A program made the translations under genes and the position numbers. A stretch of 64,000 nucleotides of DNA, taken from NCBI GenBank assembly GCA_012729555.1, contig JAAYCX010000012.1:86519-150518 (forward strand), in the 5' to 3' direction. The DNA comes from Acidobacteriota bacterium (GTDB lineage: Bacteria; Acidobacteriota; UBA6911). Positions within the stretch are counted from its first letter, which is position 1. Each line of letters begins with the position of its first letter. This document shows, piece after piece, positions 5,942-64,000 of the stretch. Below the pieces are notes generated by a model. That model was not told where the DNA came from. It ran no database searches and worked only from the letters and a program-made list of their open reading frames with translations.

Positions 5942-6355
5942 TCAGGCGTTGGGGATCTTGAGCACCTGTCCCACCTTGATGAGGTTCGGGTCGGTGAGCT
6001 GGTCCTTGTTGGCGTCGAAAATCTTCATGTAGGCGCCGGCGTTGCCGTAGAACTGCTTCGCGAGCTTCGAGAGCGTGTCCCCCGGCTGGACCGTATAGGT
6101 CTTTGCCGCCGGGGCGGCCGCGGCTGGGGGCGCCATCGAGGGATCGATGACGATGTCGCAGGTCAGGTCGGCGTAGGCCGGGTCCACGAGCTTGATCTGG
6201 TTCCAGATGGCGTTTTTCTGTTCCTCGGTTCCGGCCGAGGCCTTGACGAAGAGTTTGTTGTCCTGCAGGTGGAGGTTGTGCATCCGGAGTTTCTTCTGCT
6301 CGATAAGGCGCAATACCGACTGATACTTCGCTTTGAGTTCCTCGAAACGGTCCAT
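5942..6355 (-). CDS. BON/LysM domain protein (YgaU/Kbp-like)
   Basis: C-terminal LysM YTVQPGDTLSKLAKQFYGNAGAYMKIFDANKDQLTDPNLIKVGQVLKIP; start at MDRFEEL with RBS GGAGGCAGC. Confidence 0.65.
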   Translation of the reverse strand: MDRFEELKAKYQSVLRLIEQKKLRMHNLHLQDNKLFVKASAGTEEQKNAIWNQIKLVDPAYADLTCDIVIDPSMAPPAAAAPAAKTYTVQPGDTLSKLAKQFYGNAGAYMKIFDANKDQLTDPNLIKVGQVLKIPNA

Positions 6356-9670: not shown

Positions 9671-10087
9671 TCACAGGAAGGGATTTTCGATCCGCAGGCC
9701 CGCGATGATCTGTTTGTTGTTCAGATCTTCCGAAAGAATCCTTGCAGCCCCGCTCCTGACGGCGGAAGCCACAATGAGGGCATCCCAGAACCCGATCCTG
9801 GCTTCGTCCTCGATCCGAAACGCCAGGTCGAGTTCAGCCGATGTGATGACGGCGCACCAGAGGGCATAGCTGGCAAGAATGAGACGCGCGGTCGGCTTCG
9901 GCAGGGGTTGCGCGATCTTGCGGGTCACATTCACGTAAAATTCCTGCAATACCTGGGTACTGAGAACTCCGCAGCGATCCGCCCACAGATCAAGAAGGAT
10001 GCCCTTTGCCCTTGCCTGTTTGGCCCCGGAATCCGCATCGTGCGCATAAATCAGCACATTCGTGTCAATAAAGGTCTTATCGCTCAT
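9671..10087 (-). CDS. vapC: Type II toxin VapC (PIN domain ribonuclease)
   Basis: FIDTNVLIYA N-terminal PIN acidic residue, conserved D/E residues, 138 aa, overlaps upstream antitoxin gene by 11 nt. Confidence 0.8.
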   Translation of the reverse strand: MSDKTFIDTNVLIYAHDADSGAKQARAKGILLDLWADRCGVLSTQVLQEFYVNVTRKIAQPLPKPTARLILASYALWCAVITSAELDLAFRIEDEARIGFWDALIVASAVRSGAARILSEDLNNKQIIAGLRIENPFL

Positions 10088-10331
10088 GCAACTCTTCCCG
10101 GCCGGCGGAAATCACTCCGCCCATGTGAAAAGGCTTGTCCAGAAGAGCGATGGCCTGCCGTTCGGCTTGAATGTAAGCCTCGTCCGCCCGAACCAAATCC
10201 TCGAGCTGCTGGGAGAGAAGGCCGCTGATCGACGTTTCCCGCCGGGCCGCAATGACCTTGGCTTTTCGAAGTAAATGCCGGCTCAGGCTGATGGTGATGT
10301 TCTGCTTGTCGCTGTTTCCGGATGGCGTCAT
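10077..10331 (-). CDS. vapB: Type II antitoxin, ribbon-helix-helix (VapB/CopG-like)
   Basis: 84 aa, RHH-like ITISLSRHLLRKAKVIAARRETSISGLLS, immediately upstream of and overlapping PIN toxin. Confidence 0.6.
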   Translation of the reverse strand: MTPSGNSDKQNITISLSRHLLRKAKVIAARRETSISGLLSQQLEDLVRADEAYIQAERQAIALLDKPFHMGGVISAGREELHER

Positions 10332-10350
10332 GGCGAACCCCCTAAATTAG

Positions 10351-10374
10351 CACGTAATTTACGTGTATCACGTA
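10351..10374. promoter_or_regulatory. Putative VapB operator: inverted repeat CACGTA-att-TACGTG plus third half-site CACGTA
   Basis: Near-perfect palindrome 20-45 nt upstream of vapB start in AT-rich promoter region. Confidence 0.4.
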
Positions 10375-10651
10375 TTTTGCGTGGCGTCAAGCGGGTCCCG
10401 GCCGGTTCGCAAATCGTTGAGAAGGATATGACGGATCCTCTGCCGTTTTCCTCCGGGTACCGGCATTCGCTTCCCTGATAGGCGTCATTATGTCGACTGC
10501 GAAGGCATCATCTCGAATATGGGGGCAGTGCAACCGACGGTCGGGCCAATCATCATCGATTTTGAACGAACCGGTGTTTTTTGCATCCTGGTCGTGTTTT
10601 GCCTCATTTTCGCAATGCCGTCGGGTGACTGAAGAGCATCGGATCTCTTTT

Positions 10652-12448
10652 TCAATAAAGGTAGACGGCCCCACTGTAGGAGGCCAGGTTGTTGTCTGCG
10701 TCGCCACCGATACCGGTTGCATTGCTTTCTTCATCAGGAGCGCCGGCCGCCAGGGTCAATCCGTCCCAGGAAAGATCGACGGCGTGGCCGAAGACGTCCA
10801 GGGGTTCCGTGTTTGAAGCCTTGATATAACTGTAAACAAAAAAGTTCCTGTCCGGACGATAGAACAGGTAGACGGCTCCGCTGTCTTCGGCGGAATCGTC
10901 CGAGCTGTCTCCGCCGATTCCTATATCCCAGCTGTCCTCGAACGGTGCTCCCACCGCCAGGGAAACGCCGTCGCCGGAAAGCGAAACCGAACTTCCGAAT
11001 GCATCCCCGGTTCCCGCGCTCGAGGCTTTGAGGTAGTCCTTCTGTGTCCAGAGACCGCTGGAATATTCAAAGACATAGACGGCGCCGCTATCGACAACGG
11101 CCTCGTTGCCCGCGCCCGGGCCGTTCCCGTCTTCGCCGGGCGCTCCGACCGCGAGAGTGTTTCCGTCCGCGGAAAGAGAAACCGAGAAACCGAAATAATC
11201 CATCGATTCGGCGTTGGAAGCCTTGATGAATGCCGCAGCGTTCCCCCAGGTGTTTCCGGTCCGGGTAAATACGAAAACAGCGCCGCTGTCCGGCAGGGCG
11301 TTGTCCTGTCCAAAGCTGCTTTCGCTGTCGTTGAAATCGTTCCCTACGGCCAGAACGCCGCCATCCTCCGAGAGAGCCAGGGAGGAACCGAACTGGTCGT
11401 TGATGTCGACATCCAAGGGGGGCTTGAGGTACGCCTGCTGTTGCCAGTCAAGGCCGTCCCGGAAAAACAGATAGACGGCTCCGCTGTCCGGGACGGAGTT
11501 GTCGATCGGGTTGCCCGCGCTGTCTTCTCTCATTGCGGAGACGGCGAGGGTGTTTCCGTCTCCCGAAAGCGCGAGCCTTTCACCGAACCGATCCCCCTCG
11601 TCCTGAAGGAAAGCCTTTATGAGGGAACCAGGGGCCCATGAGTTCCCGGCGCGCGTGAAGATATAGACCGCGCCGCTGTCCGGCATGGAATTGTCATCCT
11701 CCCCACCGGTGGAGCCGCTGTCTTCATACATCGCTCCAACCGCAAGGGTGTCTCCATAATACGAAAGGGCAACCTGTCCCCCGAATTCATCGAAGGATTC
11801 CGCGTTCCAGGCCTTGAGGTATGCCTCCTGCTCCCAGCCGGATATCGTATAGGCGAAAATATAGACCGCTCCGCTTGCCGGTGCGGAGTTGTCCATCTGG
11901 CTGCCGGAATAGCCCGGATCGCCCGGATGCCATGCGCCGGTGGCGGCGCTGCTTTCATAGGGGGCCCCGACAGCCAGCGTCCGTCCGTCCCCGGAAAGCG
12001 CCACCGAGACGCCAAAACCATCGTATTCCCCGGTATTCGATGCCTTGAAATATCCCACGGCATCGGCCAGGGACCCGGTCACGAAAACCTCGCCCATACT
12101 CTGGTAAAACCCGTTACGCAAGGCTTCCAGAATATAGGAGGCGTTGATTCGGTCGGGCAGCGGAACATACAGGTCGTAGAACGTGGTGTCTGCATCGATC
12201 GTGGCTATGACGCTATAGCCCGATTGGCCATCAGGGTCTTCCAGCAGCCTGTACGCGGTTTCATTGGAAACATCCGTCCATGTAAAATGAAAAATATTCA
12301 CCTGCCGGAATTCGAGTTGGAGCGTGGGAGACGGAGGATTGCCTCCTGTCCGCCCGTCACCAGCGCAGGAACAAAGGCCCAGGATGAGGACCAGGTGAAG
12401 GATGGACCATAGGAAATTCTGAATTCTAGGCGAATGTGACAGCTTCAT
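10652..12448 (-). CDS. FG-GAP repeat (integrin-alpha-like beta-propeller) lipoprotein
   Basis: ~7 repeats of FG..-GDG-T/LAVGAP...DSGAVY; signal/lipobox LILGLCSC; RBS AAGGAG; upstream extension of the ORF rejected. Confidence 0.7.
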   Translation of the reverse strand: MKLSHSPRIQNFLWSILHLVLILGLCSCAGDGRTGGNPPSPTLQLEFRQVNIFHFTWTDVSNETAYRLLEDPDGQSGYSVIATIDADTTFYDLYVPLPDRINASYILEALRNGFYQSMGEVFVTGSLADAVGYFKASNTGEYDGFGVSVALSGDGRTLAVGAPYESSAATGAWHPGDPGYSGSQMDNSAPASGAVYIFAYTISGWEQEAYLKAWNAESFDEFGGQVALSYYGDTLAVGAMYEDSGSTGGEDDNSMPDSGAVYIFTRAGNSWAPGSLIKAFLQDEGDRFGERLALSGDGNTLAVSAMREDSAGNPIDNSVPDSGAVYLFFRDGLDWQQQAYLKPPLDVDINDQFGSSLALSEDGGVLAVGNDFNDSESSFGQDNALPDSGAVFVFTRTGNTWGNAAAFIKASNAESMDYFGFSVSLSADGNTLAVGAPGEDGNGPGAGNEAVVDSGAVYVFEYSSGLWTQKDYLKASSAGTGDAFGSSVSLSGDGVSLAVGAPFEDSWDIGIGGDSSDDSAEDSGAVYLFYRPDRNFFVYSYIKASNTEPLDVFGHAVDLSWDGLTLAAGAPDEESNATGIGGDADNNLASYSGAVYLY

Positions 12449-12682
12449 GAGATACATATCTCCTTGGTTTTCGGAATCACAGCTCTTCCCTTTATTGATT
12501 GGATGATGATCGTTGAATTTCTTATCAGAAAGAATTCCCGGTTCTTCGGAGGACGCCGTTTTGCCGGTCCTTTTCCATTCTGTGCCATTCAATCCGGCCG
12601 GCCCGGGGGGACTTTTCGAACGCGCTGTGACATAATGGCGTTTGGTGCCTTACGCTATGAACAGAGACGGAACCGGCAATCG

Positions 12683-32673: not shown

Positions 32674-34086
32674 CTACGAGGTCCTCGGGACGTGCGGCGC
32701 CACGCACATGGGACATTCGGGGCTGAACCCCGCGGCGCTGTATCCCGTCATGCCGCCGGCGACGTTGCACACGTTCGCAAAACCCGCCTGCTTGAGCAGG
32801 GAGGCCGAAAGGCTGGAGCGGTGCCCCGTGCTGCAGATCACGGCCACCGGCCGGCTCTTCTTCAGGGAACCGTGCCGGGTACGCAGGTCGGGAGCGGGAA
32901 TATTGACGGCGCCCTCGATATGAACGGCTTCGTACTCGCCGGCGGCCCGCACATCGACCAGCGTGAGTTCCGACCGCCCTTTCATGAGCTGGTTCAATTC
33001 CCGGACCGAAACCTGCGGCACGTGCCCGGTCGGGAGCCCTTGGCGCGACCACTCGAACATGCCGCCGTCGAGATACCCCACGACGCGGTCCAGGCCGACG
33101 CGCCGGAGCAGGACGCCGGCCTCGTAGGCCTCCTCGCCCGATCCGGCCACGAGCAGGATGTCGTGGTCGGGCGGGAGGACCCAGCCGGCGAAGGTGGAGA
33201 AATTCCCGCTGATGTCGATGTTGTACGCGCCGGGGACATGCTGCCCGCCGAAGGCGTCGTAGCTCCGGATGTCGAGCACGATCGTGTTCTTCTTTCCCGC
33301 GGCCTTGCTGAACCGCGCGGGGTCCATCAGGAGAATGCCGGGGAGGGTGTGGACCCTGGCGGGCCCCTTGCCGTTGATGGCGCTGCAGCGGCTGAAATGG
33401 TCCGGGGCTGCCGGCATGTCGGTGGTCAGCGAGCGGATGAACTGCTCGCGGTCCGGGATCTGCAGCGCCGGGTTGCAGCGCCGCTCGTACCCGATCGTCG
33501 TCCAGCGTTTCGCCCCCATGGCGCGCCCGCAAAGGCTGCCGGCGCCGTGGGCGGGATAGACGTCGCAGAAATCGGGAAGCGCCATGAGCTTGCCGTGGAG
33601 GCTGTCGTAGAGCTTATGGGCCAGATCGCGCGCCTTGCCGGGGAAGAGGTCGGGCCGGCCGACGTCGCCGACGAACAGGGTGTCCCCGCAGAAAACGGCC
33701 GCCGGCTCCTTTCCGCGGCTGCGGTCGGTGACGACATAGCTGATATGCTCCGGGGTATGGCCCGGGGTCTCCAGCACCCGGATGCTCATGTTTTCGATCC
33801 GGAAACTGTCCCCTTCCGCGACCGCGCGGTGCCTGAAGCGGCATTTGGCCGATTTGGGGGCGTAGATCACCGCCCCGGTGGCGTCCGCCAGGTCCAGGTG
33901 CCCGGAAATGAAATCGGCATGCAGATGGGTTTCCAGGATATGGGTGATCTTCATCCCCATCTCCTCCGCGGCGTGCAGGTACACTTCGATGTCGCGCTGC
34001 GGGTCCACGATGGCACAGGTGTCCGTCCCGCCGAGGAGGTAGGAACTGTGCGCAAGGCCTTTCACGAAAAACTGTTCTACATACAT
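32674..34086 (-). CDS. Persulfide dioxygenase (MBL fold) fused to tandem rhodanese domains (CstB-like)
   Basis: MBL metal motif THLHADFISGH, two rhodanese domains with C-terminal catalytic CSTGHRS. Confidence 0.8.
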   Translation of the reverse strand: MYVEQFFVKGLAHSSYLLGGTDTCAIVDPQRDIEVYLHAAEEMGMKITHILETHLHADFISGHLDLADATGAVIYAPKSAKCRFRHRAVAEGDSFRIENMSIRVLETPGHTPEHISYVVTDRSRGKEPAAVFCGDTLFVGDVGRPDLFPGKARDLAHKLYDSLHGKLMALPDFCDVYPAHGAGSLCGRAMGAKRWTTIGYERRCNPALQIPDREQFIRSLTTDMPAAPDHFSRCSAINGKGPARVHTLPGILLMDPARFSKAAGKKNTIVLDIRSYDAFGGQHVPGAYNIDISGNFSTFAGWVLPPDHDILLVAGSGEEAYEAGVLLRRVGLDRVVGYLDGGMFEWSRQGLPTGHVPQVSVRELNQLMKGRSELTLVDVRAAGEYEAVHIEGAVNIPAPDLRTRHGSLKKSRPVAVICSTGHRSSLSASLLKQAGFANVCNVAGGMTGYSAAGFSPECPMCVAPHVPRTS

Positions 34087-34285
34087 ATCTCATCTCCTGT
34101 CTGAGGTGCGTGGGAAAGATGCCGATCGATCATCTCGTTCTTTTACCCTAAATCCGAGCCCCCTGTCATCGCAAATCGGCGCCGGCGGCCCGGCCGCGGG
34201 GGGGTTGACACGTCCCGCGGGCCGATGGACAATGCCATCGGCCCCCGCTTCGGGGAGCGCGCACAGGACAAGGAGAGCATCCCCC

Positions 34286-35290
34286 ATGAGCCGATTCACA
34301 TTGACCCTGTTGGCCCTGTTTCTCACGGCGGCGCCCGCCCCGGCCCAGACGGAAGCGCGGGACGGCGGCCTCGTCGTGCTCCGGGTGGCGGGCGAACCGA
34401 TTACGGAAGGCCGGCTGCTGGAGGTCATCGACGACCTGGCGCGGCAGCAGGAGATGACGCTCGAACAGCTCCGGCAGCGCAACTCGCTCCTGTTCGACGA
34501 CGCGATCGACAGCATCGTCACCGTCACCCTTTTGAAGGAACAGGCCGGCAGGGGGAAGGTAACGGTGGACCCGTCGAAGGTGGACGCGGCCATGGGGGAA
34601 CTGCAGAAGCGCTACACGTCCCCCGAGGCTTTCGCCGCCGCCCTCGAGCAGCAGGGGATCACGGATGCGGCGCTGAGGTCGAACATCGAACAGAGCCTGG
34701 CGGTGCAGCAGGTGCTCGAAGGCGTCATCCGCGGCGTGCCCGAGGCGACCGGGGCCGAGGTGGAAACCTTCTACGCCGACAATCCCGACAAGTTCTCCCT
34801 GCCGGAACGGGTGCACGCGGCCCATATCCTGTTGCGGGCAGGGGCCGGGGATACGCCGGAGCGGAAGCTCGCGATCCGGAAGAAGCTCGAAGCGCTCCGT
34901 GCGGAAATCGAATCGGGCGCCGTCGCCTTCGCCGACGCGGCGGCGAAACACTCCGAGGACACGGTCACGGCCTCCCGGGGGGGGGACCTGGGGGTCTTCA
35001 TCCGGGGCCAGATGCCGAAGCCGTTCGAAGACGCCGCCTTTGCCGCCCGTCCCGGGGCCCTCTCCCCGGTCGTGGAAACCCAGATCGGCTATCACCTCAT
35101 CCGGACGATCGAGCTGAGGCCCGCGGGACAGGCGTCGCTGGAAGAAGCCCGTCCGGCCATTAAAAAGCACCTGGACCAGCTCTCGCAACAGGAGGCCACG
35201 AAGGCGTTCCTCGACGGGCTGAAGGCCGGGGCCAGGATCGAGTCCTTCATGACCCGCGAGGAATTCGCCCGGCGGCACCCCGTGGAGTAG
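34286..35290 (+). CDS. Periplasmic parvulin-type peptidyl-prolyl isomerase (SurA/PrsA-like)
   Basis: Signal peptide; parvulin PPIase core HILLRAG...GGDLGVF...GYHLIRT. Confidence 0.7.
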   Translation: MSRFTLTLLALFLTAAPAPAQTEARDGGLVVLRVAGEPITEGRLLEVIDDLARQQEMTLEQLRQRNSLLFDDAIDSIVTVTLLKEQAGRGKVTVDPSKVDAAMGELQKRYTSPEAFAAALEQQGITDAALRSNIEQSLAVQQVLEGVIRGVPEATGAEVETFYADNPDKFSLPERVHAAHILLRAGAGDTPERKLAIRKKLEALRAEIESGAVAFADAAAKHSEDTVTASRGGDLGVFIRGQMPKPFEDAAFAARPGALSPVVETQIGYHLIRTIELRPAGQASLEEARPAIKKHLDQLSQQEATKAFLDGLKAGARIESFMTREEFARRHPVE

Positions 35291-52195: not shown

Positions 52196-52332
52196 CTTTT
52201 ACCCCTCCGGGTCACGGCGACCGACGCCCGCGGTCGCCGGGTTCACCCTATGGGTATACACCCGTCGACAGGCCGCAGTCTCCCAAATTCATTTTCATGT
52301 TGACCGGCCGCTCCGCGGAGTAAAATGAGCCA

Positions 52333-52602
52333 ATGGTCAGATACGCAAGACGCGTCGTCGTGTTCATGGTCGGCATGACGGTATTTCTTTTCGGAATCGC
52401 ACTGGTCTTCCTCCCGGGGCCCGCCTTCGTCGTCATTCCCGTCGGGCTGGCCATCCTGGCCACGGAATACGCCTGGGCCCGGCAGTGGCTGCGCGTCATG
52501 AAGGAATCGGCGGAAAAAGGAGCCGAAAGGCTGAACCTCCGTTCGCTGTTTTCCAGGACCCCCGGACCCGACGGGGGAGGAGCGTCGGCCGATAGCCCAT
52601 AA
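52333..52602 (+). CDS. Small membrane protein with PGPGW-like motif
   Basis: LPGPAFVVIPVGLAIL motif, two TM helices, 89 aa. Confidence 0.45.
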   Translation: MVRYARRVVVFMVGMTVFLFGIALVFLPGPAFVVIPVGLAILATEYAWARQWLRVMKESAEKGAERLNLRSLFSRTPGPDGGGASADSP

Positions 52603-52684
52603 ATTCCCTGATTGCAACGGTTCCCCCCCATCGTCAAATGAGATACAATGCATACCTCGACCGCGTTGGCGGGTGGGGAGAGCG

Positions 52685-55600
52685 ATGAAGAAGCGCTGGA
52701 TCGGACGCATAACCAAGGCGCTGGCGGCACTGGCCGTCCTCGTTGCCCTCATTCCGCTTCTGCTGCTGGCGCCGCCGGTCGGAAACTGGGCGTTCCACAA
52801 GGCGGGCGGATATCTCCGGCGCAGCGCGAAGATCGAACTGCGGGCGGACCGGGTCCGGTTGAACCTGTTCACCGGATCGGTCCGGCTGGAAAACCTGTCG
52901 CTCGCGGCCGCGCGCGCCCCGGGGCTCCCCCCCCTGCTGCGGGCCGATCACGCCTACGCCGACCTCGGCCTGCTCGATGCCGTCAGGGGGGTGTGGACGG
53001 TGGAAACCGTGCGGGTCCACGAGCCCAGGGTGCATTATTTCGTGGGCCCGGACGGGGAAACGAACCTGCCCGAGACGGACGCCTCCGGGGACGCCTCCCT
53101 GGATCTGCGGATTCTCCAGGCCGGCATCACCGACGGCGCCCTGCAATGGGAAGACCGCCGGCGCGGACTGTGGATCGAACTGCCCGGCTGGGATCTTGCC
53201 GTCGAGGGAAACCGGGGGTCGCGCGCGCACCGTATCACCTTCACCGGCGGCCCGGTTTCGACCTTCACCCTGGGGGACCTTTCGATCCCCGTCGATTCCC
53301 TCGGCTTCTCAGGCGTTCTGGACGGCCCCCTATGGCGCATAGACTCGGCCCGGGTCGTTGCCGCCCGGTCCACGCTCGAGTTCGGGGGATCGGTACGGAA
53401 CCTCCGGGAACTGGACCTGGAACTGGCGCCCGGGCTGGATACCGGAGCGATCGCCGAAGCCGCGGGTCACGGGGGCAGGATCGCCGGCCGGGTCTCCGGA
53501 ACAATCAGGGTTCACGGCCCGCTCGACAACCTGCGGATAGAGGGCCGGCTCGCGGGAGATGGGGTGCAGCTGGAGGGGGCGCCTCCGCTCGACCTCCGGC
53601 TTGCCGCGGACCTGGAGTGGGACGCGGCCGGGGACAGGGTGTCGATCCAAAGCCTGGACCTCGCTTCCCCGGAAGGATCGCTCCGCGCCGAGGGGACGCT
53701 CTGCACCGGGGAGGAGTGCGCGGCCAGTGTCCTGAGGGCGCGGCTCCGTGACATCGATCTCCTCCCCTTCTCGCACAGCCTCGGGCTCCCCTTCCGCCTG
53801 GCCGGCCGGGCGGGGGGGACGGTCTCCGTCGAGTGGAGGGGGAAGCCCGTACCTGCAAACCTCCGCGCCGACGCCTCCCTCGAACTCGGGAGCACCCGCC
53901 CGGCGCCGGAAGCCGATCTTCTCCCTGTCTCCGCGACGGTCGACGCGGAGTACGCATCCGGCCGGCTGCGGGGACGGATACGCTCGCTCTCGGTCCTGGG
54001 TGCGCGCGCGGCCGGCGAGTTTTCCCTCCGGTCTTTTCGCACCCTCGAGGGGCGCCTCCAGGGGGAGGCCGCCGACCTGGACGATTCCGCGCAGCAGCTC
54101 GCGCGCTTTCTGGGAAAGCCGGGATCCCGCGCGGGGGTCAGCCTGGCCGGCAACCTGGACTTTGACGTCCGGGCCTCGGGGGAACTGGACGACCTGGAGA
54201 TCGAGGCCAGGCTGGACGCCCCGTCGCTCGCGGTCGCGGGCCTCGGGGGGATGGGGACCGAGGCGCGCGCCGTCTACCGAAACGGGGTCCTCTCGTTTCA
54301 GAACAACCTGCGTCTTCCCGGCGAGAGCCTGCTGGAGACCCAGGGCACGCTCGATTTCGGAGGGGAGGAGCCCCGCTTGCGCCTCGCGGCCAAATCCGCG
54401 GCCCCGGTGCCGCTCGAGGTCCTCAACTCCCTGCTCGGGCGCTCGATTCCGATGTCGGGCACCCTGGAGACCTCGCTGCGCCTGGACGGCCCCGTCGACA
54501 ACCTCGCCGGGGATCTCTCCATCACCGGAGAAGCCCTCTCCCTGTACGCACTGCCCCTGGGACGGCTGGACATCCTCCTCGGCCTGGCCGACCGGGAGAT
54601 CCGGTCCAGCCGCATACGGTTGTCGCGGAGTCCCGAGCATCCATCGAGCGATCTGCTGGCGGCCCGCGTTTCCTACGCCCTGGACAGCGGCCGCTACGAA
54701 CTCGAGGCGGAGGGGACGGGGCTGGCCCTCGTCCCCGCGCACCTTCCCGGCGGAGCCCAAATCAACGGGACCCTCTCGCTCGAGGCTTCGGGAACGGGGA
54801 CGATCGAAAATCCTTCCTTCGACCTCGAAATCGGATCGAACGACCTGCACGCATGGCGCCAACCCCTGGGCCCGGTTTCGGTCACGGCCCGGATCCGGGG
54901 GAAGGAAGCCGGCATCCGGGCGCTGGCACCCGATCTGGATCTTTCCTCCGACGCCACCCTGACACTGAGGGCCCCCTGGCCCTTCCGGGTCACCGTCGAG
55001 GCGCGGGACTCCGACCTGGCCGCCGCCGGACTCGAGTGGCGCGGCCGGCCGGTGACCGGGTCGCTCAGGGCGGACATCTCGGGTTCCGGAGAGTTGGGCG
55101 ACCTGGAGGCGTCCCGGATCGAGGCGCTGATCGAAGAGGTGACGGCGCGGGCGGGCGAACTCGAGGTGCGCACCGGGGCGCCGGCCGGAATCCACTATCG
55201 GGGCCGCTCCCTGGAGTTCGCACCGCCCCTCGCCCTGGCCGTCGGCCGTTCGGCGATCGAGCTCGGCGGCCGCCTCCCCGTCCGGGCGGGGGCGCCGGCC
55301 GGAACCGTCGACCTGAAAGGGCGGCTCGACCTGGCGGACACCGGAACAGTCTTCACCCCCCCAGAAGGGTTCGGGCTCGAAGGAGTCCTCGATCTCGACC
55401 TGGTGCTCTCCGGCGCCTACGGGGATTTTGCCGTCACGGGCGGATTCGGCCTGGACGACGGAACGATACGCATTCCCAGGGCCGCCGCACCCATGACGGA
55501 AGCCTCCGTCCGGGGAAAGATCGAGAGCGGGGTGCTGGTCCTCGAGCGGGCGGGCGCGAAATGGGGGAGAGGCCGCATCGGGCTCTCGGGCACCGTCCCC

Positions 55601-58600
55601 CTCGGGTTGCTGCCCGAAGACCTTCCCCTGGAATTTGCGCGCGGGACAGGGCCGGCCGAGTTCGTCCTCGACGTTGAAGATTTCGCCCCGGAAGCGACGG
55701 GGTTCCTTCCCGAGGGAATTTCGGGCCTGGTTTCGCTCCGCGCCACGGGGCGCGCCGACCATCCGGACCTCCAGGCCCTGGACGGCGAAATCCGGTTCGG
55801 CGCCCTGGACCTCAAGGTCGACACCATCGGCTTCAGCCAGGCGGAACCGGTCCTGATCGAAATCCGCCGCGGCGTCGCCACCATCGCCCGACTGGCGCTC
55901 TCCGGGCCGGAAACCCGTATCGAGGCGTCCGGAACGGCGGGAGTGTACCCGCGGGGGCCGCTGGACCTCGCCGTCGAAGGCTCCCTCGACGCCGGGCTGC
56001 TCGGCGTTTTCAGCGAGGGGGTGAAAACGGCGGGCGAACTGCGGATCGACGCGCGGGTCGCGGGCTCGCTCGACGCCCCGGTGCTTTCGGGCCGGGCGGA
56101 AATGGACAACGGGAAGCTGGCCCTCCAATCCCCCCGGATCGCGGCCGACGACCTGAAGATGCGGCTGGACCTCACCTCCGATTCCATCATCGTGCGCGAA
56201 CTCACCGGCGTCCTCAACGGCGGCGCCATGTCGGTCGAGGGTTCGATCGGGTACCGTGACGGAATCCTCAACGGCATAGATCTCGAGGCGCGCGTGCAGG
56301 ACGTCTTCCTCGAATTCCCCGAGGGGCTGAAATCGGCGTCGAGCGGGAACCTGACCATGAAATCGGGGGAAGACACCATCGTCGTCGGCGGCAGCCTGCG
56401 GATCATGGAAAGCGCCTACCGGGAATCGATCGAAGTCGGGGGGCAGCTGATCAACTACCTGAAATCGCAGCAGGTGGTGACCCTCGACGAGGAACCCAAT
56501 CCCTTCCTGGACCGGCTCCGGTTCGACATCGCCGTCCGCACCTCGACCCCGCTGCTGGTGCAGAACAACATCGCCAGGGTCGAAGCCTCCGCCACCAATC
56601 TCCGCCTTGTCGGAAGTTATGCCGACCCCTCGGTCGTCGGCCGCGTCACCCTCGGCGAGGGGGGGGAGATCGTCCTGAACCAGCAAAGCTACTACATCAA
56701 CCGGGGGGTGATCACCCTGGTGAACCAGAGCCGCATCGAACCGGAATTCAACATCCAGGCGCAGACGAAGATCGACATCTACGAGATCACGCTCCAGCTG
56801 ATCGGGAACCCCGAACGGATGTCCACCCTGCTCTCTTCCGACCCGCCGCTTTCGGAGAGGGACATCCTCTCGCTCCTCCTCACGGGCAAGACCATCGCCG
56901 AGACCCAGGGGCGCGAAATGCAGATGGCCCGGACCCAGGCGCTGTCGCTGATCGCCGGACAGGCGGGTGCGGGAGTCACCAACGAGGCGCGCAAGGCGCT
57001 CCACCTGAGCACCTTCCGGATCGACCCGGGGCTGATCGCCTCGGAATCCAACCCGGGGGCCCGCCTGACGATCGGGGAGGACGTCACGCGCGACCTCAGC
57101 CTCGTCTATTCCATGAACCTCGTCAACGGGGGGGACCAGATCTGGGCGGCCGAGTACGATATCGGCCGGCGCCTCTCGACCCAGGCCACCAAGCAGCAGG
57201 ACAACAGCTACCGCTTCGAGTTCCGCCATGACCTCCGCTTCGGGGGCGCGGGGGCGCGCCGCGGGGCGCGGCGGCAGGCGGCCCGGTTCGAGATCGGATC
57301 GGTCCATTTCCAGGGGGAGGAGGCGCACTCCGAAAAGGACCTTATGGACCGGTTCAAGAACAAGGCGGGCGACCGGTACGAGTTTCAGAAAGTCCAGAAA
57401 GGGCTGGACCGCCTGCACGACTTCTACTTCAGCCAGGACCGCCTGGAAGCCGATATCCGGCTCCAGCGCGAAACCGGGGACAGGACCGTCGACCTGAAGG
57501 TCGGCATCGACCCCGGGCCGGTGGTGCAGTTCGACTACGGCTCCTTCCCCCTAGGCAAGGATGTACGCGAGCAGGTCGCCAGGGCGTGGGCGGACGGGGT
57601 TTTCGAGGCCGAAAGACTGGACGAGGCGGCGCTCGTCATCCGCCGCTCCCTGACCGAAAGCGGCTTCCTCCAGGCCACGGTCGCTGCTGAAATGGCGGAG
57701 GCGGACGGGCGGAAGCAGGTCCGGTTCACCATCGACTCCGGCCCCCGGTACGCCGAGATTCCCCTCTCCTTCCCGGGGGCAAAGGGGATTTCCCCCGGCG
57801 CCCTCGGCGAACTCGTGGAGGACGCCGACCTGGAGCGCGAGATCTACGTCAACCCGAAAAAGGTGGCCGATTTTCTCCGGCGCTACTACCGCAACCGCGG
57901 GTACCTCCAGGCGGAGGTCTCCCCGCCGCAGTTCCGGCCGGCCGCACGGGAAACGGTGATCGCGGTTACCGAGGGGCCGCTGTTCGTGATCGGCGAGCTC
58001 GAGTTCTCCGGCAACAAGGTCTTCAGCTACGACGAACTCTGGATGGTCATCCCCACCTCGAGCGGCAGCGTCTACAACCCGGACTCGCTGAGGGAATCGG
58101 TCCGGGAGATGGAGAACCTCTACCACGGCCGGGGGTACAACGACGTCACCATCACCTTCCGGGTAGTCCAGGACACCTCCAGGACCCGGGCCGACGTGAA
58201 CTTCCAGATCACCGAACGGCGGCAGTCGGTCATCCGCGATATCGTGATCGAGGGGAACCGGGACACCCGGCCGGGATTCGTCACCCGGCAGATCGACTTC
58301 CGGGTCGGCGACCCCCTGGATTACGAAAAGATCAACGAAGCCCGGAGGCGGCTGTACTCCACGGGGGTGTACACGACCGTCGATTTCCAGATGGAGGAAC
58401 TCCCCTCCGAGGCGCCGGCCCCGGAGCGAAAGGAGATGCGGGTGCGGGTCCGGCTGCGCGAGACCCAACCCTACCGCCTGCAGTACGGGCTCTTCTACGA
58501 TACCGACCGCGGCGTCGGCGGCCTGGTGGAGGCGCAGCACCTGAACCTCCTGGGGCGGGCGACCAACCTCGGCCTCCGCCTCCGCTACGACTCCGACCTC

Positions 58601-59491
58601 AAGGAGGGGCGGCTGTACTATCACCAGCCCTTCGTGACCCGGCTCCACCTCAAGATGGACGCCAGCGCGTTCTGGCAGCAGGAGACCCGCTCCTTCTTCT
58701 CGGCGAAGCGGATCGGGTTCTCCCTGATGCAGGAGCGGGAGCTTCCTCGGGAGTTCCGCCTCGATTACGGCTACCGCTACGACCATGTCCGCTGGAACGG
58801 ACTGCCGCCCGACCCGATCCTCTTCCAGGCCAGCGACCCCGTCGCCCGGCTGACCGGGACCCTGACCCGCGACACGCGCGACAGCGTGCTCGACCCCACG
58901 CGCGGCGAGTTCACCTCCCAGACGTTCGAATTCGGCCCCCGCTGGCTCGGGTCCGAGGTCGGTTTCGCCCGTTACTCGGGGCAGTATTTCCGCTACTTCC
59001 CCCTGGACAAGTACCTGGGGAAACCGATCGTGGACCGAAAGGGGGAACCGCTGCCGACGAACTTCGTCTACGCCGCGGCGCTGCGCCTGGGGCTGACGTC
59101 CCCCTTCGGGAAAAAATCGCTGATCGCGCCCGAGCGCTTCTTCGCCGGGGGCGGCACCACCATGAGGGGGTTCGAGCAGGACCTGATGGGGCCGGTGGAG
59201 GAGCAGCCGGACGGCAGCCTGCGGCCGAGCGGGGGGGAAGCCATGTTCCTGCTCAACAACGAACTCCGCTTCCCGATCGTGGGCATCCTCCAGGGGGTGG
59301 CGTTCCTCGACATCGGCAACGTCTACAGGAAACTGACCGACTTCGATTTCACCCTGCGCAAGACGGCCGGGGCGGGGCTCCGGCTGAAGATCCGGTCGAT
59401 CCCCCTGAGGTTCGACTACGGGTTCAAGCTCGACCGGAAAACGGGCGAGAGCGGGGGCGAATTCTTCTTCAGCATCGGGCAGGCGTTCTAG
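52685..59491 (+). CDS. Single-chain TamB-like / TamA(Omp85)-like fusion protein (translocation and assembly module)
   Basis: N-terminal signal-anchor then ~1500 aa TamB/AsmA-like beta-rich repeats ending in DUF490-like region; then POTRA repeats and Omp85 barrel motifs (FFAGGGTTMRGF, FLLNNELRFP) ending in C-terminal Phe; one uninterrupted 2268-codon ORF. Confidence 0.7.
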   Translation: MKKRWIGRITKALAALAVLVALIPLLLLAPPVGNWAFHKAGGYLRRSAKIELRADRVRLNLFTGSVRLENLSLAAARAPGLPPLLRADHAYADLGLLDAVRGVWTVETVRVHEPRVHYFVGPDGETNLPETDASGDASLDLRILQAGITDGALQWEDRRRGLWIELPGWDLAVEGNRGSRAHRITFTGGPVSTFTLGDLSIPVDSLGFSGVLDGPLWRIDSARVVAARSTLEFGGSVRNLRELDLELAPGLDTGAIAEAAGHGGRIAGRVSGTIRVHGPLDNLRIEGRLAGDGVQLEGAPPLDLRLAADLEWDAAGDRVSIQSLDLASPEGSLRAEGTLCTGEECAASVLRARLRDIDLLPFSHSLGLPFRLAGRAGGTVSVEWRGKPVPANLRADASLELGSTRPAPEADLLPVSATVDAEYASGRLRGRIRSLSVLGARAAGEFSLRSFRTLEGRLQGEAADLDDSAQQLARFLGKPGSRAGVSLAGNLDFDVRASGELDDLEIEARLDAPSLAVAGLGGMGTEARAVYRNGVLSFQNNLRLPGESLLETQGTLDFGGEEPRLRLAAKSAAPVPLEVLNSLLGRSIPMSGTLETSLRLDGPVDNLAGDLSITGEALSLYALPLGRLDILLGLADREIRSSRIRLSRSPEHPSSDLLAARVSYALDSGRYELEAEGTGLALVPAHLPGGAQINGTLSLEASGTGTIENPSFDLEIGSNDLHAWRQPLGPVSVTARIRGKEAGIRALAPDLDLSSDATLTLRAPWPFRVTVEARDSDLAAAGLEWRGRPVTGSLRADISGSGELGDLEASRIEALIEEVTARAGELEVRTGAPAGIHYRGRSLEFAPPLALAVGRSAIELGGRLPVRAGAPAGTVDLKGRLDLADTGTVFTPPEGFGLEGVLDLDLVLSGAYGDFAVTGGFGLDDGTIRIPRAAAPMTEASVRGKIESGVLVLERAGAKWGRGRIGLSGTVPLGLLPEDLPLEFARGTGPAEFVLDVEDFAPEATGFLPEGISGLVSLRATGRADHPDLQALDGEIRFGALDLKVDTIGFSQAEPVLIEIRRGVATIARLALSGPETRIEASGTAGVYPRGPLDLAVEGSLDAGLLGVFSEGVKTAGELRIDARVAGSLDAPVLSGRAEMDNGKLALQSPRIAADDLKMRLDLTSDSIIVRELTGVLNGGAMSVEGSIGYRDGILNGIDLEARVQDVFLEFPEGLKSASSGNLTMKSGEDTIVVGGSLRIMESAYRESIEVGGQLINYLKSQQVVTLDEEPNPFLDRLRFDIAVRTSTPLLVQNNIARVEASATNLRLVGSYADPSVVGRVTLGEGGEIVLNQQSYYINRGVITLVNQSRIEPEFNIQAQTKIDIYEITLQLIGNPERMSTLLSSDPPLSERDILSLLLTGKTIAETQGREMQMARTQALSLIAGQAGAGVTNEARKALHLSTFRIDPGLIASESNPGARLTIGEDVTRDLSLVYSMNLVNGGDQIWAAEYDIGRRLSTQATKQQDNSYRFEFRHDLRFGGAGARRGARRQAARFEIGSVHFQGEEAHSEKDLMDRFKNKAGDRYEFQKVQKGLDRLHDFYFSQDRLEADIRLQRETGDRTVDLKVGIDPGPVVQFDYGSFPLGKDVREQVARAWADGVFEAERLDEAALVIRRSLTESGFLQATVAAEMAEADGRKQVRFTIDSGPRYAEIPLSFPGAKGISPGALGELVEDADLEREIYVNPKKVADFLRRYYRNRGYLQAEVSPPQFRPAARETVIAVTEGPLFVIGELEFSGNKVFSYDELWMVIPTSSGSVYNPDSLRESVREMENLYHGRGYNDVTITFRVVQDTSRTRADVNFQITERRQSVIRDIVIEGNRDTRPGFVTRQIDFRVGDPLDYEKINEARRRLYSTGVYTTVDFQMEELPSEAPAPERKEMRVRVRLRETQPYRLQYGLFYDTDRGVGGLVEAQHLNLLGRATNLGLRLRYDSDLKEGRLYYHQPFVTRLHLKMDASAFWQQETRSFFSAKRIGFSLMQERELPREFRLDYGYRYDHVRWNGLPPDPILFQASDPVARLTGTLTRDTRDSVLDPTRGEFTSQTFEFGPRWLGSEVGFARYSGQYFRYFPLDKYLGKPIVDRKGEPLPTNFVYAAALRLGLTSPFGKKSLIAPERFFAGGGTTMRGFEQDLMGPVEEQPDGSLRPSGGEAMFLLNNELRFPIVGILQGVAFLDIGNVYRKLTDFDFTLRKTAGAGLRLKIRSIPLRFDYGFKLDRKTGESGGEFFFSIGQAF

Positions 59492-60294
59492 CCGGCATCC
59501 TTTCCCCGGCCGCGGTGGACCCAGCGGAAGACGGGGTCGTGCCCCTCCTCCCCGGGAGCGCGCCGGCGCCTGAGGTCCGCGAGGTTGCGCCCCATGATCG
59601 AGTGGACGTCCTCCATGAGACGGCGCTTTCCCCCCCTCGAGTAGGATGCCAGGTCGATCGGGCGGTCGATCCGGATACGGATGACGGTGCCGGGGTTCAC
59701 CTCGAGGGTCCCGGGCACGATCACGCGGCTGCTGCCGTCGAGCGTCACCGGGACCAGAGGGACGCCCGCGCGCAGGGCCAGGGCGAAGGCCCCGCCGTGG
59801 AAGGGGCCCAGTTCCCCCGTCCGGCTCCGCGTCCCTTCCGGGAAGGCGATGGCGCTGACCCCCCCGGCGATCGTCCCGGCCGCGGCCACGATGCTCCTGG
59901 CCGCCTCGCGGGGATTTTCCCGGTCGATGGGGATGTAGCCCGAACGCCGCATGTGCCATCCCATGAACGGGACGCTGAAAAGCTGCTTTTTGGCGATCCA
60001 GCGGAACTGGATCGGCAGATGCGCCGCGAGCGACAGGATGTCGTGCAGCCCGCTGTGGTTGGCCACGAAGATCTGCGGCCGGCGGCGATCGACGTGTTCC
60101 AGCCCCTCGATCTCCACGCGGGCGCGGCTGAGCCAGAGGTTGTCGCGGGACCAGCGCCGCATGCAGAAGTGCTGGATGCGGCCGCCCCGGGACAGGAGGC
60201 TCCCCAGAAGCGACACCGTCGCCCAGAAGGCGGTGCTGAGCCCGCAGCCGGTCCAGCACCAGATCGTATACGTCCTCGCCCTTGCCTTTTTCAT
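59488..60294 (-). CDS. plsC: 1-acyl-sn-glycerol-3-phosphate acyltransferase
   Basis: HxxxxD motif ANHSGLHD and FPEGTRS motif; N-terminal TM. Confidence 0.75.
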   Translation of the reverse strand: MKKARARTYTIWCWTGCGLSTAFWATVSLLGSLLSRGGRIQHFCMRRWSRDNLWLSRARVEIEGLEHVDRRRPQIFVANHSGLHDILSLAAHLPIQFRWIAKKQLFSVPFMGWHMRRSGYIPIDRENPREAARSIVAAAGTIAGGVSAIAFPEGTRSRTGELGPFHGGAFALALRAGVPLVPVTLDGSSRVIVPGTLEVNPGTVIRIRIDRPIDLASYSRGGKRRLMEDVHSIMGRNLADLRRRRAPGEEGHDPVFRWVHRGRGKDAG

Positions 60295-62564: not shown

Positions 62565-62700
62565 GCCTCCAGCATACCTCATCCCGACTTCCCGGGCAGG
62601 GCAAAATCGGGCCGCGTCCGGGAGCGGGGATCGCCCCGGGCGAGGTTGCAATGAAGGATCGGATTCTCTATGATGTGCCTTTCCAAACCGGGGAGTTGCC

Positions 62701-64000
62701 GTGACCGAGACTCAAGCCGCCGCCGCGGGGACCCGCAAGCGCCAGACCGCGGAAAGCATGGCCGAGCGCCAGCGTGAAATTTCGATATCGGAATTTTTCA
62801 GCAAGAACCGGCACCTGCTGGGATTCGACAACCCGCAGAAGGCGCTGCTGACCGCCGTCAAGGAGGCCGTGGACAACTCGCTCGACGCCTGCGAGGAAGC
62901 GGGCTTCCTCCCCTCGATCCGCATCGCCATCCGGCAGGTCGGAGAGGACCGCTTCCGCGTGTCGGTGGAGGACAACGGGCCCGGGATCGTCAAGGCGCAG
63001 ATCCCGAAGATCTTCGGCAAGCTCCTGTACGGATCGAAGTTTCACACTCTCAAGCAGGCGCGGGGGCAGCAGGGGATCGGCATTTCGGCGGCCGGAATGT
63101 ACGGGCTGCTCACCACCGGGAAATCGATCGTCATCACCTCCCGCACCGGCGCGGGCAAGCCCGCCCACTACTACGAGATCCAGATCGACACCCGGAAGAA
63201 CACGCCCCAGATCATCACCGACCGGATCATCGACTGGGAGCCCCCGCACGGGACCCGGGTGGAAATCGAGCTGATCGGGACCTACAAGAAAGGGCGGCAC
63301 TCGGTCGAGGACTACGTGCGCCAGACGGCCATCGCCAACCCCCACTGCGAAATCTTCTACACCCCCCCCGACGCGGACGAACCGATGCACCTGGTCCGGG
63401 GCTCGGACCTGCTGCCGCCGGAGCCGCGCGAAATCAGGCCCCACCCCTACGGGGTGGAACTCGGCGTGCTCATCCGGATGATGAAGGAAACCTCCGCCCG
63501 CCAGCTGGGCGCCGCCCTGCAGAAGGATTTTTCGCGCGTGAGCGCCAAAATCGCGGCGGAGATCTGCAAGGCGGCCGGGCTGCGGCCCAGCGCCAACCCC
63601 CACACCCTCCAGGGGCAGGAGACCGAGCGGCTCTACAAGGCGATCAACGGGGTGAAGATCATGAGCCCGGCGACCAACTGCCTCTCCCCCATCGGGGAGG
63701 AGCAGATCCTGGCGGGCCTCCGGAAGGAGATCGACGCCGACTTCTTCACCGCCATCACGCGCGCGCCGGCGGTCTACCGGGGCAACCCCTTCCAGATCGA
63801 GGTCGGGCTCGCCTACGGCGGGCGCCTCCCGGGGGACGAGCTGGTGGACCTGCTTCGCTTCGCCAACCGCGTCCCCCTGCAATACCAGCAGTCGGCCTGC
63901 GCCATCACCAAGGCCGTCCTCGGCATCGACTGGCGCAGCTACGGCCTGCCGCAGTCCAAGGGGGCGCTCCCGACGGGGCCCGTGGCGCTGTTCGTGCACA
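62701..64000 (+). CDS. top6B: DNA topoisomerase VI subunit B (3' partial at window end)
   Basis: Collinear with archaeal Top6B: [17 protein letters not shown]...[19 protein letters not shown] (Bergerat ATPase), [22 protein letters not shown]; no stop before window end. Confidence 0.8.

Follow-up and report, generated by a model that had tools for sequence, protein, structure and literature searches.

A TamB-like protein and a BamA-like Omp85 barrel encoded as one polypeptide in Acidobacteriota

Can a TamB protein anchored in the inner membrane and an Omp85 barrel of the outer membrane be made as one chain, and how would the two halves of such a chain meet? The question is raised by a gene in a 64,000-nt stretch of DNA, called here the window, from an Acidobacteriota bacterium (GTDB lineage Acidobacteriota; UBA6911; GenBank assembly GCA_012729555.1, contig JAAYCX010000012.1, positions 86,519–150,518 of the forward strand). 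An earlier note on this DNA, made from the sequence alone, had described at 52685–59491 a single polypeptide of 2268 amino acids (aa), in which a TamB-like anchored region continues, with no intervening stop, into POTRA domains and then an Omp85 barrel with a final Phe. This description is borne out, with a TamB-like region of ~1520 aa. On the + strand, one open reading frame (ORF) extends from 52673 (GTG) to 59491, has no internal stop and ends in translation with ...FFFSIGQAF*. The start at ATG 52685 and the length of 2268 aa are right, because GGGGAGAG lies 2 nt upstream and the consensus N-terminus of the orthologues, MKKRW, agrees with this start. Pfam matches follow each other in the order weak DUF748/AsmA-type N-terminus, TamB/DUF490, POTRA (E 1.5e-38) and Omp85 (aa 1954–2268, E 3.5e-42), and the 64-kb window holds no second copy of TamB or Omp85. 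The fused gene probably encodes one polypeptide that spans the whole cell envelope (probability about 0.6). It would be one of the rare single polypeptides for which a place in both membranes is predicted. The features to which the argument refers are the following; AF2 stands for AlphaFold2 and pLDDT for its local confidence score.

52685..59491, + strand: complete fused gene, 2268 codons plus stop; alternative GTG at 52673; start backed by the orthologue consensus.
52709..52783, + strand: putative N-terminal signal-anchor ITKALAALAVLVALIPLLLLAPP, aa ~9–33 (Kyte–Doolittle scan; AF2 helix at aa 3–27).
52832..56203, + strand: AsmA/TamB-type repetitive β-sheet, aa ~50–1173, presumed periplasm-spanning lipid groove.
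56204..57241, + strand: TamB DUF490 domain, aa 1174–1519 (Pfam PF04357; BLASTP against the unfused TamB of locus L073).
57209..57241, + strand: last TamB strand YRFEFRHDLRF, aa 1509–1519, β-signal-like and internal (family conservation; co-variation with barrel strand β1).
57242..57289, + strand: linker GGAGARRGARRQAARF, aa 1520–1535 (low AF2 pLDDT; orthologue lengths; alignment).
57290..58462, + strand: five POTRA domains, aa ~1536–1609, 1613–1684, ~1690–1760, 1768–1843 and 1847–1926 (AF2; Pfam).
58463..59488, + strand: 16-strand Omp85 barrel, aa ~1927–2268 (Pfam; AF2; Foldseek).
58472–58501, + strand: barrel strand β1, YRLQYGLFYD, aa 1930–1939.
59165–59173, + strand: RGF of loop 6 within ERFFAGGGTTMRGF, aa 2161–2163.

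The reality of the fusion is settled by its relatives. A protein search of 5.8 billion proteins, with relatives drawn from NCBI, JGI, ENA and Logan assemblies, gave >130 full-length orthologues of 2000–2350 aa at 92%, 77%, 66% and down to ~24% identity, with a continuous frame in independent assemblies; the named sources of full-length fused relatives are Acidobacteria, Vicinamibacterales and Polarisedimenticolaceae. With E<=1e-30, a junction-spanning query of 301 aa (aa 1400–1700) recovered 169 clusters, formed at 50% identity. Among the 150 best, the majority align right across the query, the full-length ones at ~aa 1400–1700 of 2000–2350. In a genome scan with one genome per GTDB species and a closer alignment (A2), at least 562 related stretches were found and the best 80 loci inspected. 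About 50 uncut loci among these 80 carry a single ORF of 2100–2350 aa with the C-terminus FFSIGQAF, and the labels of the 80 include Bryobacterales, Bryobacteraceae, Ca. Solibacter, Vicinamibacterales, Aminicenantes, Polarisedimenticolia, Acidiferrales and Terriglobia. Even a complete chromosome of 5.35 Mb (OY970174.1) encodes two full fused paralogues (L012 and L067, with 2313 and 2307 codons between stops), the second only ~30% identical to the window protein. The fusion is a large family in hundreds of species genomes, mostly of Acidobacteriota, and this conservation makes it a real gene rather than a sequencing error. The search for the same fusion in relatives, suggested at the outset, thus has a positive answer. 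Public databases name the fused genes inconsistently, as 'BamA/YaeT' or as 'TamB domain-containing protein'. No natural TamB–Omp85 fusion is described in the literature searched, including the main evolutionary study of TAM, the translocation and assembly module, with incomplete coverage of journals; the fusion is apparently undescribed so far, and domain-architecture databases or other sources may already mention it.

Two side observations concern members of the family. The record titles of six loci (L019, L039, L053, L055, L070 and L075) name Bifidobacteriaceae, Eubacteriales, Clostridia or Dongiaceae despite a typically acidobacterial gene; such labels on the carrier metagenome-assembled genomes (MAGs) are probably due to wrong automatic taxonomy or mis-binning. 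In a low-GC relative (L071, 2088–8857), a TamB-like ORF of 1594 codons overlaps by 57 nt, in another frame, an Omp85 ORF of 680 codons that has no signal peptide. Possible readings are a fused gene that has been frameshifted, and a frameshift that is programmed or due to the assembly.

At the junction itself, the TamB part is complete. In BLASTP against the unfused TamB of L073, F1519 of the window protein stands opposite the last residue of its counterpart (...FRHDLRF versus ...KLRKRF*), so that the fusion point is the TamB C-terminus. The family keeps the motif DNSYRxEFRHDLRF-GG around this point, with D1506, R1510, H1515, G1520 and G1521 invariant in A2. The linker follows, and the first strand of POTRA1 comes next. 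In the window protein it is basic and rich in Gly, Ala and Arg, and in the family it is variable and rich in Gly, Pro, Arg, Ala and Ser; neither has a hydrophobic core. Its length is 15–18 aa in 90 of 131 orthologues and ranges from 7 to 27. It occupies the position of the signal peptide of unfused Omp85 proteins and aligns weakly, by BLAST, with the end of the signal peptide of the L073 Omp85. Translation, alignment and a hydrophobicity scan reveal neither a start codon nor a hydrophobic signal sequence ahead of POTRA1. Without a start and a signal peptide of its own, the Omp85 half would reach the periplasm only within the whole chain. The TamB C-terminus is thus linked to POTRA1 covalently, as had been proposed, through a linker of ~16 aa, which the AF2 model of the junction (a prediction called for earlier) places with low confidence between DUF490 and POTRA1.

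The first half of the protein has the build of a TamB. The segment at aa ~9–33 is the sole hydrophobic one of the whole protein in a Kyte–Doolittle scan and, by homology with E. coli and Borrelia TamB, would be a signal-anchor that is not cleaved off and remains in the inner membrane; Borrelia TamB is the basis for this view of an uncleaved anchor (PMC5582053). It is followed by the long continuous β-sheet region typical of periplasmic TamB proteins, ~1450 aa long and ending in DUF490. The PF04357 (DUF490) match reaches 98.4 bits against a cut-off of 22.4 (E 6.7e-28) and covers positions 4–381 of the 381 of the profile at aa 1174–1513. Together with the weak DUF748/AsmA-type N-terminus, it answers the doubt, raised with the original description, whether the N-terminal part is TamB-like by profile search. 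The domain closes the TamB-homologous part, not the polypeptide. Its last strand, YRFEFRHDLRF, with alternating hydrophobic residues and an aromatic end, is kept across the family and aligns with the ...LDVKLRKRF C-terminus of unfused TamB. Foldseek with the N-terminal model against the PDB returned only the ApoB100 β-belt and LptD, at a template modelling (TM) score of at most 0.2, and is uninformative.

The second half had been called TamA, a label that does not hold. AF2 models were built from 35-sequence alignments; the one for aa 1090–2268 (pLDDT 77.3, predicted TM score, pTM, 0.55) comprises β-sheet, DUF490, linker, POTRAs and barrel. It contains five β-α-α-β-β POTRA units, with POTRA3–5 in register with those of BamA, as against three POTRAs in TamA. 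The BamA profile of NCBIfam (TIGR03303, OM_YaeT) scores 261.3 bits, below its equivalog cut-off of 297.15. The TamA profile (NF047950) scores 70.8 bits against a cut-off of 625 and matches the barrel end only, and the TamL profile (NF052279) 94.5 bits against 400. In phmmer, a PDB BamA reaches 77 bits, its residues 224–481 lying in register with aa 194–451 of the Omp85 half, and a PDB TamA 50 bits, over the barrel end only. Foldseek aligns ~820 columns with full-length BamA chains (E ~1e-41). Because the Omp85 half has no signal peptide, the TamL-type lipobox is absent as well; a Sec signal peptide of its own, which BamA has, is also missing. R2161, G2162 and F2163 of loop 6 and the terminal F2268 of ...FFFSIGQAF are invariant in A2. 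With five POTRAs and BamA as best match, the Omp85 half is BamA-like and not TamA, as judged from profiles and models.

How could such a gene arise? Three arrangements occur among the inspected loci. In arrangement (a), an Omp85 gene (~1000 aa), a small SurA_N-like gene and tamB follow each other (L001, L076, L082 and L086). In arrangement (b), omp85 comes directly after tamB in the same orientation, in Acidobacteriota MAGs (L070, L073 and L074) and in Thermodesulfovibrionales (L078 and L079). Arrangement (c) is the fused gene. The two genes of arrangement (b) are tightly coupled, either with an ATGA overlap in which the omp85 start lies on the tamB stop (L073, 6527–6530; L074, 8114–8117) or with a gap of a few to 17 nt (L070, L078 and L079), and their Omp85 proteins have a classic signal peptide. 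The Omp85 partners of arrangements (a) and (b) have ~7 POTRAs versus 5 in the fused form, which, beyond about residue 240 of the L073 Omp85, aligns with it at 29% identity. In L079 both genes stand in the same frame (~6323–6330), so that loss of the single tamB stop would join the two reading frames. The simplest history would lead from (b) to (c): a coupled tamB–omp85 pair would have lost the tamB stop, its Omp85 signal peptide would have been stripped of the hydrophobic core, and two POTRAs fewer would have remained (~7 to 5). Such a loss explains the fusion because related MAGs keep tamB and omp85 adjacent and partly in ATGA overlap. The gene order had been called reversed. This is correct against proteobacterial tamA–tamB and not within the related Acidobacteriota and Thermodesulfovibrionales, where unfused tamB–omp85 pairs already exist; the order therefore reflects a pre-existing arrangement. 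Both orders have been reported, BamA–TamB in Acidobacteria and TamB–BamA in Spirochaetes (Heinz 2015, PMC4494059).

As a separate observation, the gene between omp85 and tamB in the acidobacterial Omp85-x-TamB operons encodes ~225 aa (L001, 7321–8004; L002, 187–870; L086, 7327–8004). The copies of L001 and L002 match SurA_N_3, and the L086 copy gives no Pfam match. The product could be a dedicated chaperone-like third component, one without counterpart beside the fused genes.

What the chain does at the barrel can be approached from E. coli, where the β-signal-like last strand of TamB pairs with β1 of a laterally open TamA, as seen by cryo-electron microscopy (cryo-EM) (PMC12800296). In this hybrid barrel the DUF490 strands lie inside the lumen (PMC12800296; PMC13119328), and DUF490 has been proposed as the Omp85-docking domain (PMC13119328). 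By homology, the β-sheet of the fused protein would form a hydrophobic groove through the periplasm, along which phospholipids would travel to the outer membrane, and the protein might help to assemble some outer-membrane proteins. YRFEFRHDLRF would pair antiparallel with β1 of the same chain, forming the E. coli TamA–TamB hybrid barrel in cis. After this strand, the chain would leave the membrane on the periplasmic side and enter POTRA1 through the ~16-aa linker. With an exit on this side, two neighbouring strands of the hybrid barrel would be joined through the periplasm by the five POTRAs as a closed loop. It is tempting to propose a permanent intramolecular hybrid barrel, in which the uncleaved chain holds its internal β-signal locked on its own β1, with the POTRAs as a closed loop. 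The proposal is a tentative one, at somewhat less than even odds.

Co-variation bears on this pairing. It was calculated for 242 fused sequences (effective number, Meff, 203) by mean-field direct coupling analysis (DCA) and by mutual information with average product correction (MI-APC). DCA has some power here, because adjacent barrel strands (0.243 +/- 0.081) outscore non-adjacent ones (0.128 +/- 0.052). The last TamB strand and β1 score 0.22 and are reciprocal best partners, a value reached by only 1 of the 79 other pairs of a TamB strand with a barrel strand; β1 with β16 gives 0.17, less than β1 with the last TamB strand. By MI-APC, none of the 183 null pairs comes up to this one, and the antiparallel register is the same (F1519 opposite Y1930, H1515 opposite Y1934). 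Of 12 half-sample resamplings, 10 ranked β1 first among the barrel partners, and all 12 gave the identical register. The signal is suggestive and favours pairing of the last TamB strand with β1 in cis.

Several results weigh against a TamB half docked on its own barrel. The proteobacterial TamB equivalog (NCBIfam NF047952) scores only 41.4 bits against a cut-off of 825, and phmmer finds no PDB match, TamB included, for the TamB half. The TamB assignment therefore rests on Pfam DUF490 and the fold, and the protein, judged by its profile matches, belongs to TamB as Pfam broadly defines the family and is no equivalog of proteobacterial TamB. Among the 104 pairs of non-adjacent barrel strands, 7 also reach the DCA value of 0.22, and co-variation is drawn from ~200 effective sequences, in which shared ancestry can inflate the signal. 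The geometry between domains is uncertain, since the AF2 models have pTM values of 0.55 and 0.50. Finally, a 16-aa linker reaches at most ~55 Å, so that the POTRA arm would have to curl back and bring POTRA1 near the barrel rim.

Other explanations begin with the integrity of the chain. A stop codon lost, or an indel introduced, by assembly or sequencing error in the G/C-rich junction could mimic a fusion, and the junction DNA does contain G5 runs, typical sites of indel errors. The frame across 57000–57500 is nonetheless free of stops, with the G+C content at third codon positions (GC3) at ~0.9 (0.88–0.93) in one common frame on either side; the >130 full-length orthologues that keep the junction come from unrelated projects, and the Omp85 half has no start codon or signal peptide with which to stand alone. 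An artefact is rejected, its likelihood being practically nil. The chain might also be exported as one and then cleaved in the linker, so that the mature machine would be an ordinary complex of two subunits, TamB and Omp85. A variable, unstructured and basic linker is a plausible protease target, the more so as it occupies the former place of a signal peptide. It retains, however, neither a hydrophobic core of signal-peptidase type nor an A-x-A motif, no conserved cleavage motif follows the GG, and its narrow length across 131 orthologues agrees better with a tether than with a spacer to be discarded. Cleavage is distinctly unlikely.

If the chain stays intact, its geometry and its partner systems may still differ from the hybrid barrel proposed above. 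The DUF490 end might stop in the periplasm beside POTRA1, leaving a barrel closed by β1 and β16, and the linker does tie the TamB end to POTRA1, which in an extended arm is the POTRA most distant from the barrel. Foldseek gives TM scores of 0.5–0.57 to full-length BamA and of 0.56–0.64 to shorter chains (595–636 versus ~785 residues); the shorter chains may lack distal POTRAs, in which case POTRA1–2 may sit differently in the model. This option is rather unlikely, as the β-signal-like last strand is strongly conserved although no longer C-terminal, and co-varies best, in antiparallel register, with β1, beyond the β1–β16 pair. About equally improbable is that the Omp85 half is the main, general BamA of the cell, the fusion tethering TamB to the BAM machinery as a covalent version of the Borrelia-type pairing. 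The BamA-colinear build with five POTRAs, the rank of BamA as best match in NCBIfam, PDB and Foldseek comparisons and the lack of another Omp85 in the window agree with it, as does the binding of Borrelia TamB to the sole BamA of that organism (PMC5582053, PMC11361582). The TIGR03303 score, however, stays under its cut-off, and two fused paralogues on one chromosome (OY970174.1) are unexpected for an essential single-copy insertase. Moreover, Acidobacteria are reported to have a canonical BamA and a second, TamB-associated BamA (Heinz 2015, PMC4494059), and some Bryobacteraceae MAGs carry a separate Omp85-x-TamB operon (L086). These indirect hints favour a dedicated paralogue.

The permanent hybrid barrel, if true, has several consequences. 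The TamB–Omp85 hybrid would be a stable working state and not an assembly intermediate, the docking strand would need no free C-terminus and TamB would never leave the lateral gate. This touches a current dispute, as two cryo-EM studies of 2026 report either the hybrid state only, called functional (PMC13119328), or both a hybrid and a disengaged state (PMC12800296). A tether of ~16 residues between the docking strand and Omp85, in a large natural family, bears directly on it: the family argues that function tolerates a lasting 1:1 association and that the docking strand does its work from within the chain. The idea of a natural experiment on TamB–TamA coupling, put forward when the gene was first described, stands and is sharpened by the E. 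coli hybrid barrel (PMC12800296). The proteins would also offer a ready natural 1:1 covalent complex that does not dissociate, as a target for structure determination and lipid-transport assays. Within one phylum, they complete an evolutionary series from the Omp85-x-TamB operon through adjacent tamB–omp85 to the fused gene, with POTRAs going from ~7 to 5. They also pose a problem of biogenesis, since the barrel has to insert while the other end of a chain of ~245 kDa remains in the inner membrane.

A PlsC-type acyltransferase gene (PF01553, a family of phospholipid synthesis) at 59488–60294 on the – strand converges on the fused gene, the two stop codons overlapping by 4 nt. This convergence is kept in the 77% relative (L084, L085), which comes from a biogas-fermenter metagenome and is syntenic with the window, and not in the non-syntenic 49% relative (L003), where the fused gene stands alone too; a link with lipid transport is possible, as is coincidence. 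Upstream, an intergenic region of ~490 bp (52196–52684) separates the fused gene from a divergent GNAT gene. It shows no sigma-70-like promoter match and no Rfam match, and no Rfam families were found in the window. A SurA-like periplasmic chaperone gene (SurA_N plus PPIC rotamase; 34043–35287, + strand), ~17 kb upstream of the fused gene, is probably unrelated housekeeping. Topoisomerase VI is mainly archaeal and eukaryotic; a gene for its B subunit (HATPase_c plus Topo-VIb transducer; 62674–63999, + strand) runs off the end of the window, and in the syntenic relative (L084, 15704–18485) Topo VI B is followed by the Topo VI A/Spo11 subunit. At ~10000–12600 the GC content of the window dips to 58% versus ~67%, and a 646-codon ORF (10655–12592, – strand) encodes five FG-GAP repeats. 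This region may have been acquired horizontally.

Compared with known systems, the fusion introduces no new principle; it is a widespread single-chain form of the TAM/TamB–BamA system. With E. coli TamA–TamB (PMC12800296, PMC13119328) it shares an AsmA-like groove protein, anchored in the inner membrane and ending in DUF490, and a β-signal-like last strand that docks on Omp85 β1, docking being only proposed for the fusion. The expected role, by analogy, is also the same, namely phospholipid transport and outer-membrane protein assembly. It differs in being a single polypeptide, TamB then Omp85, in which Omp85 lacks its own signal peptide, in having five POTRAs versus the three of TamA and in a docking strand that is internal instead of a free C-terminus. 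Spirochaete TamB–BamA (Borrelia BB0794/BB0795; PMC5582053, PMC11361582, PMC4494059) is similar in that TamB lies upstream of a BamA-type Omp85 with five POTRAs and that the DUF490 region contacts POTRA domains. There, however, genes and proteins are separate and the partner is the sole canonical BamA, whereas the fused barrel scores under the BamA equivalog cut-off. The acidobacterial 'second BamA' operon, Omp85-x-TamB, belongs to the same phylum and likewise dedicates a BamA-like paralogue to TamB, but in the opposite order, with a SurA_N-like gene in between, separate proteins and ~7 POTRAs versus 5. The unfused tamB–omp85 pairs (L070, L073, L074, L078 and L079) agree in order and orientation, their TamB ends with ...RKRF at the fusion point and their Omp85 aligns over POTRAs and barrel (29% identity), yet a stop codon, a signal peptide and ~7 POTRAs set them apart as two proteins. 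The type Vd autotransporter PlpD (PMC11116518) also joins an N-terminal functional module covalently to POTRA–Omp85, but this module is a patatin passenger, with one POTRA, a cleavable signal peptide, no inner-membrane anchor and no bridge across the envelope. Finally, in chloroplasts, TIC236 is a TamB-like bridge anchored in the inner envelope and bound to the outer-membrane Omp85 TOC75, as two separate proteins of a eukaryotic organelle.

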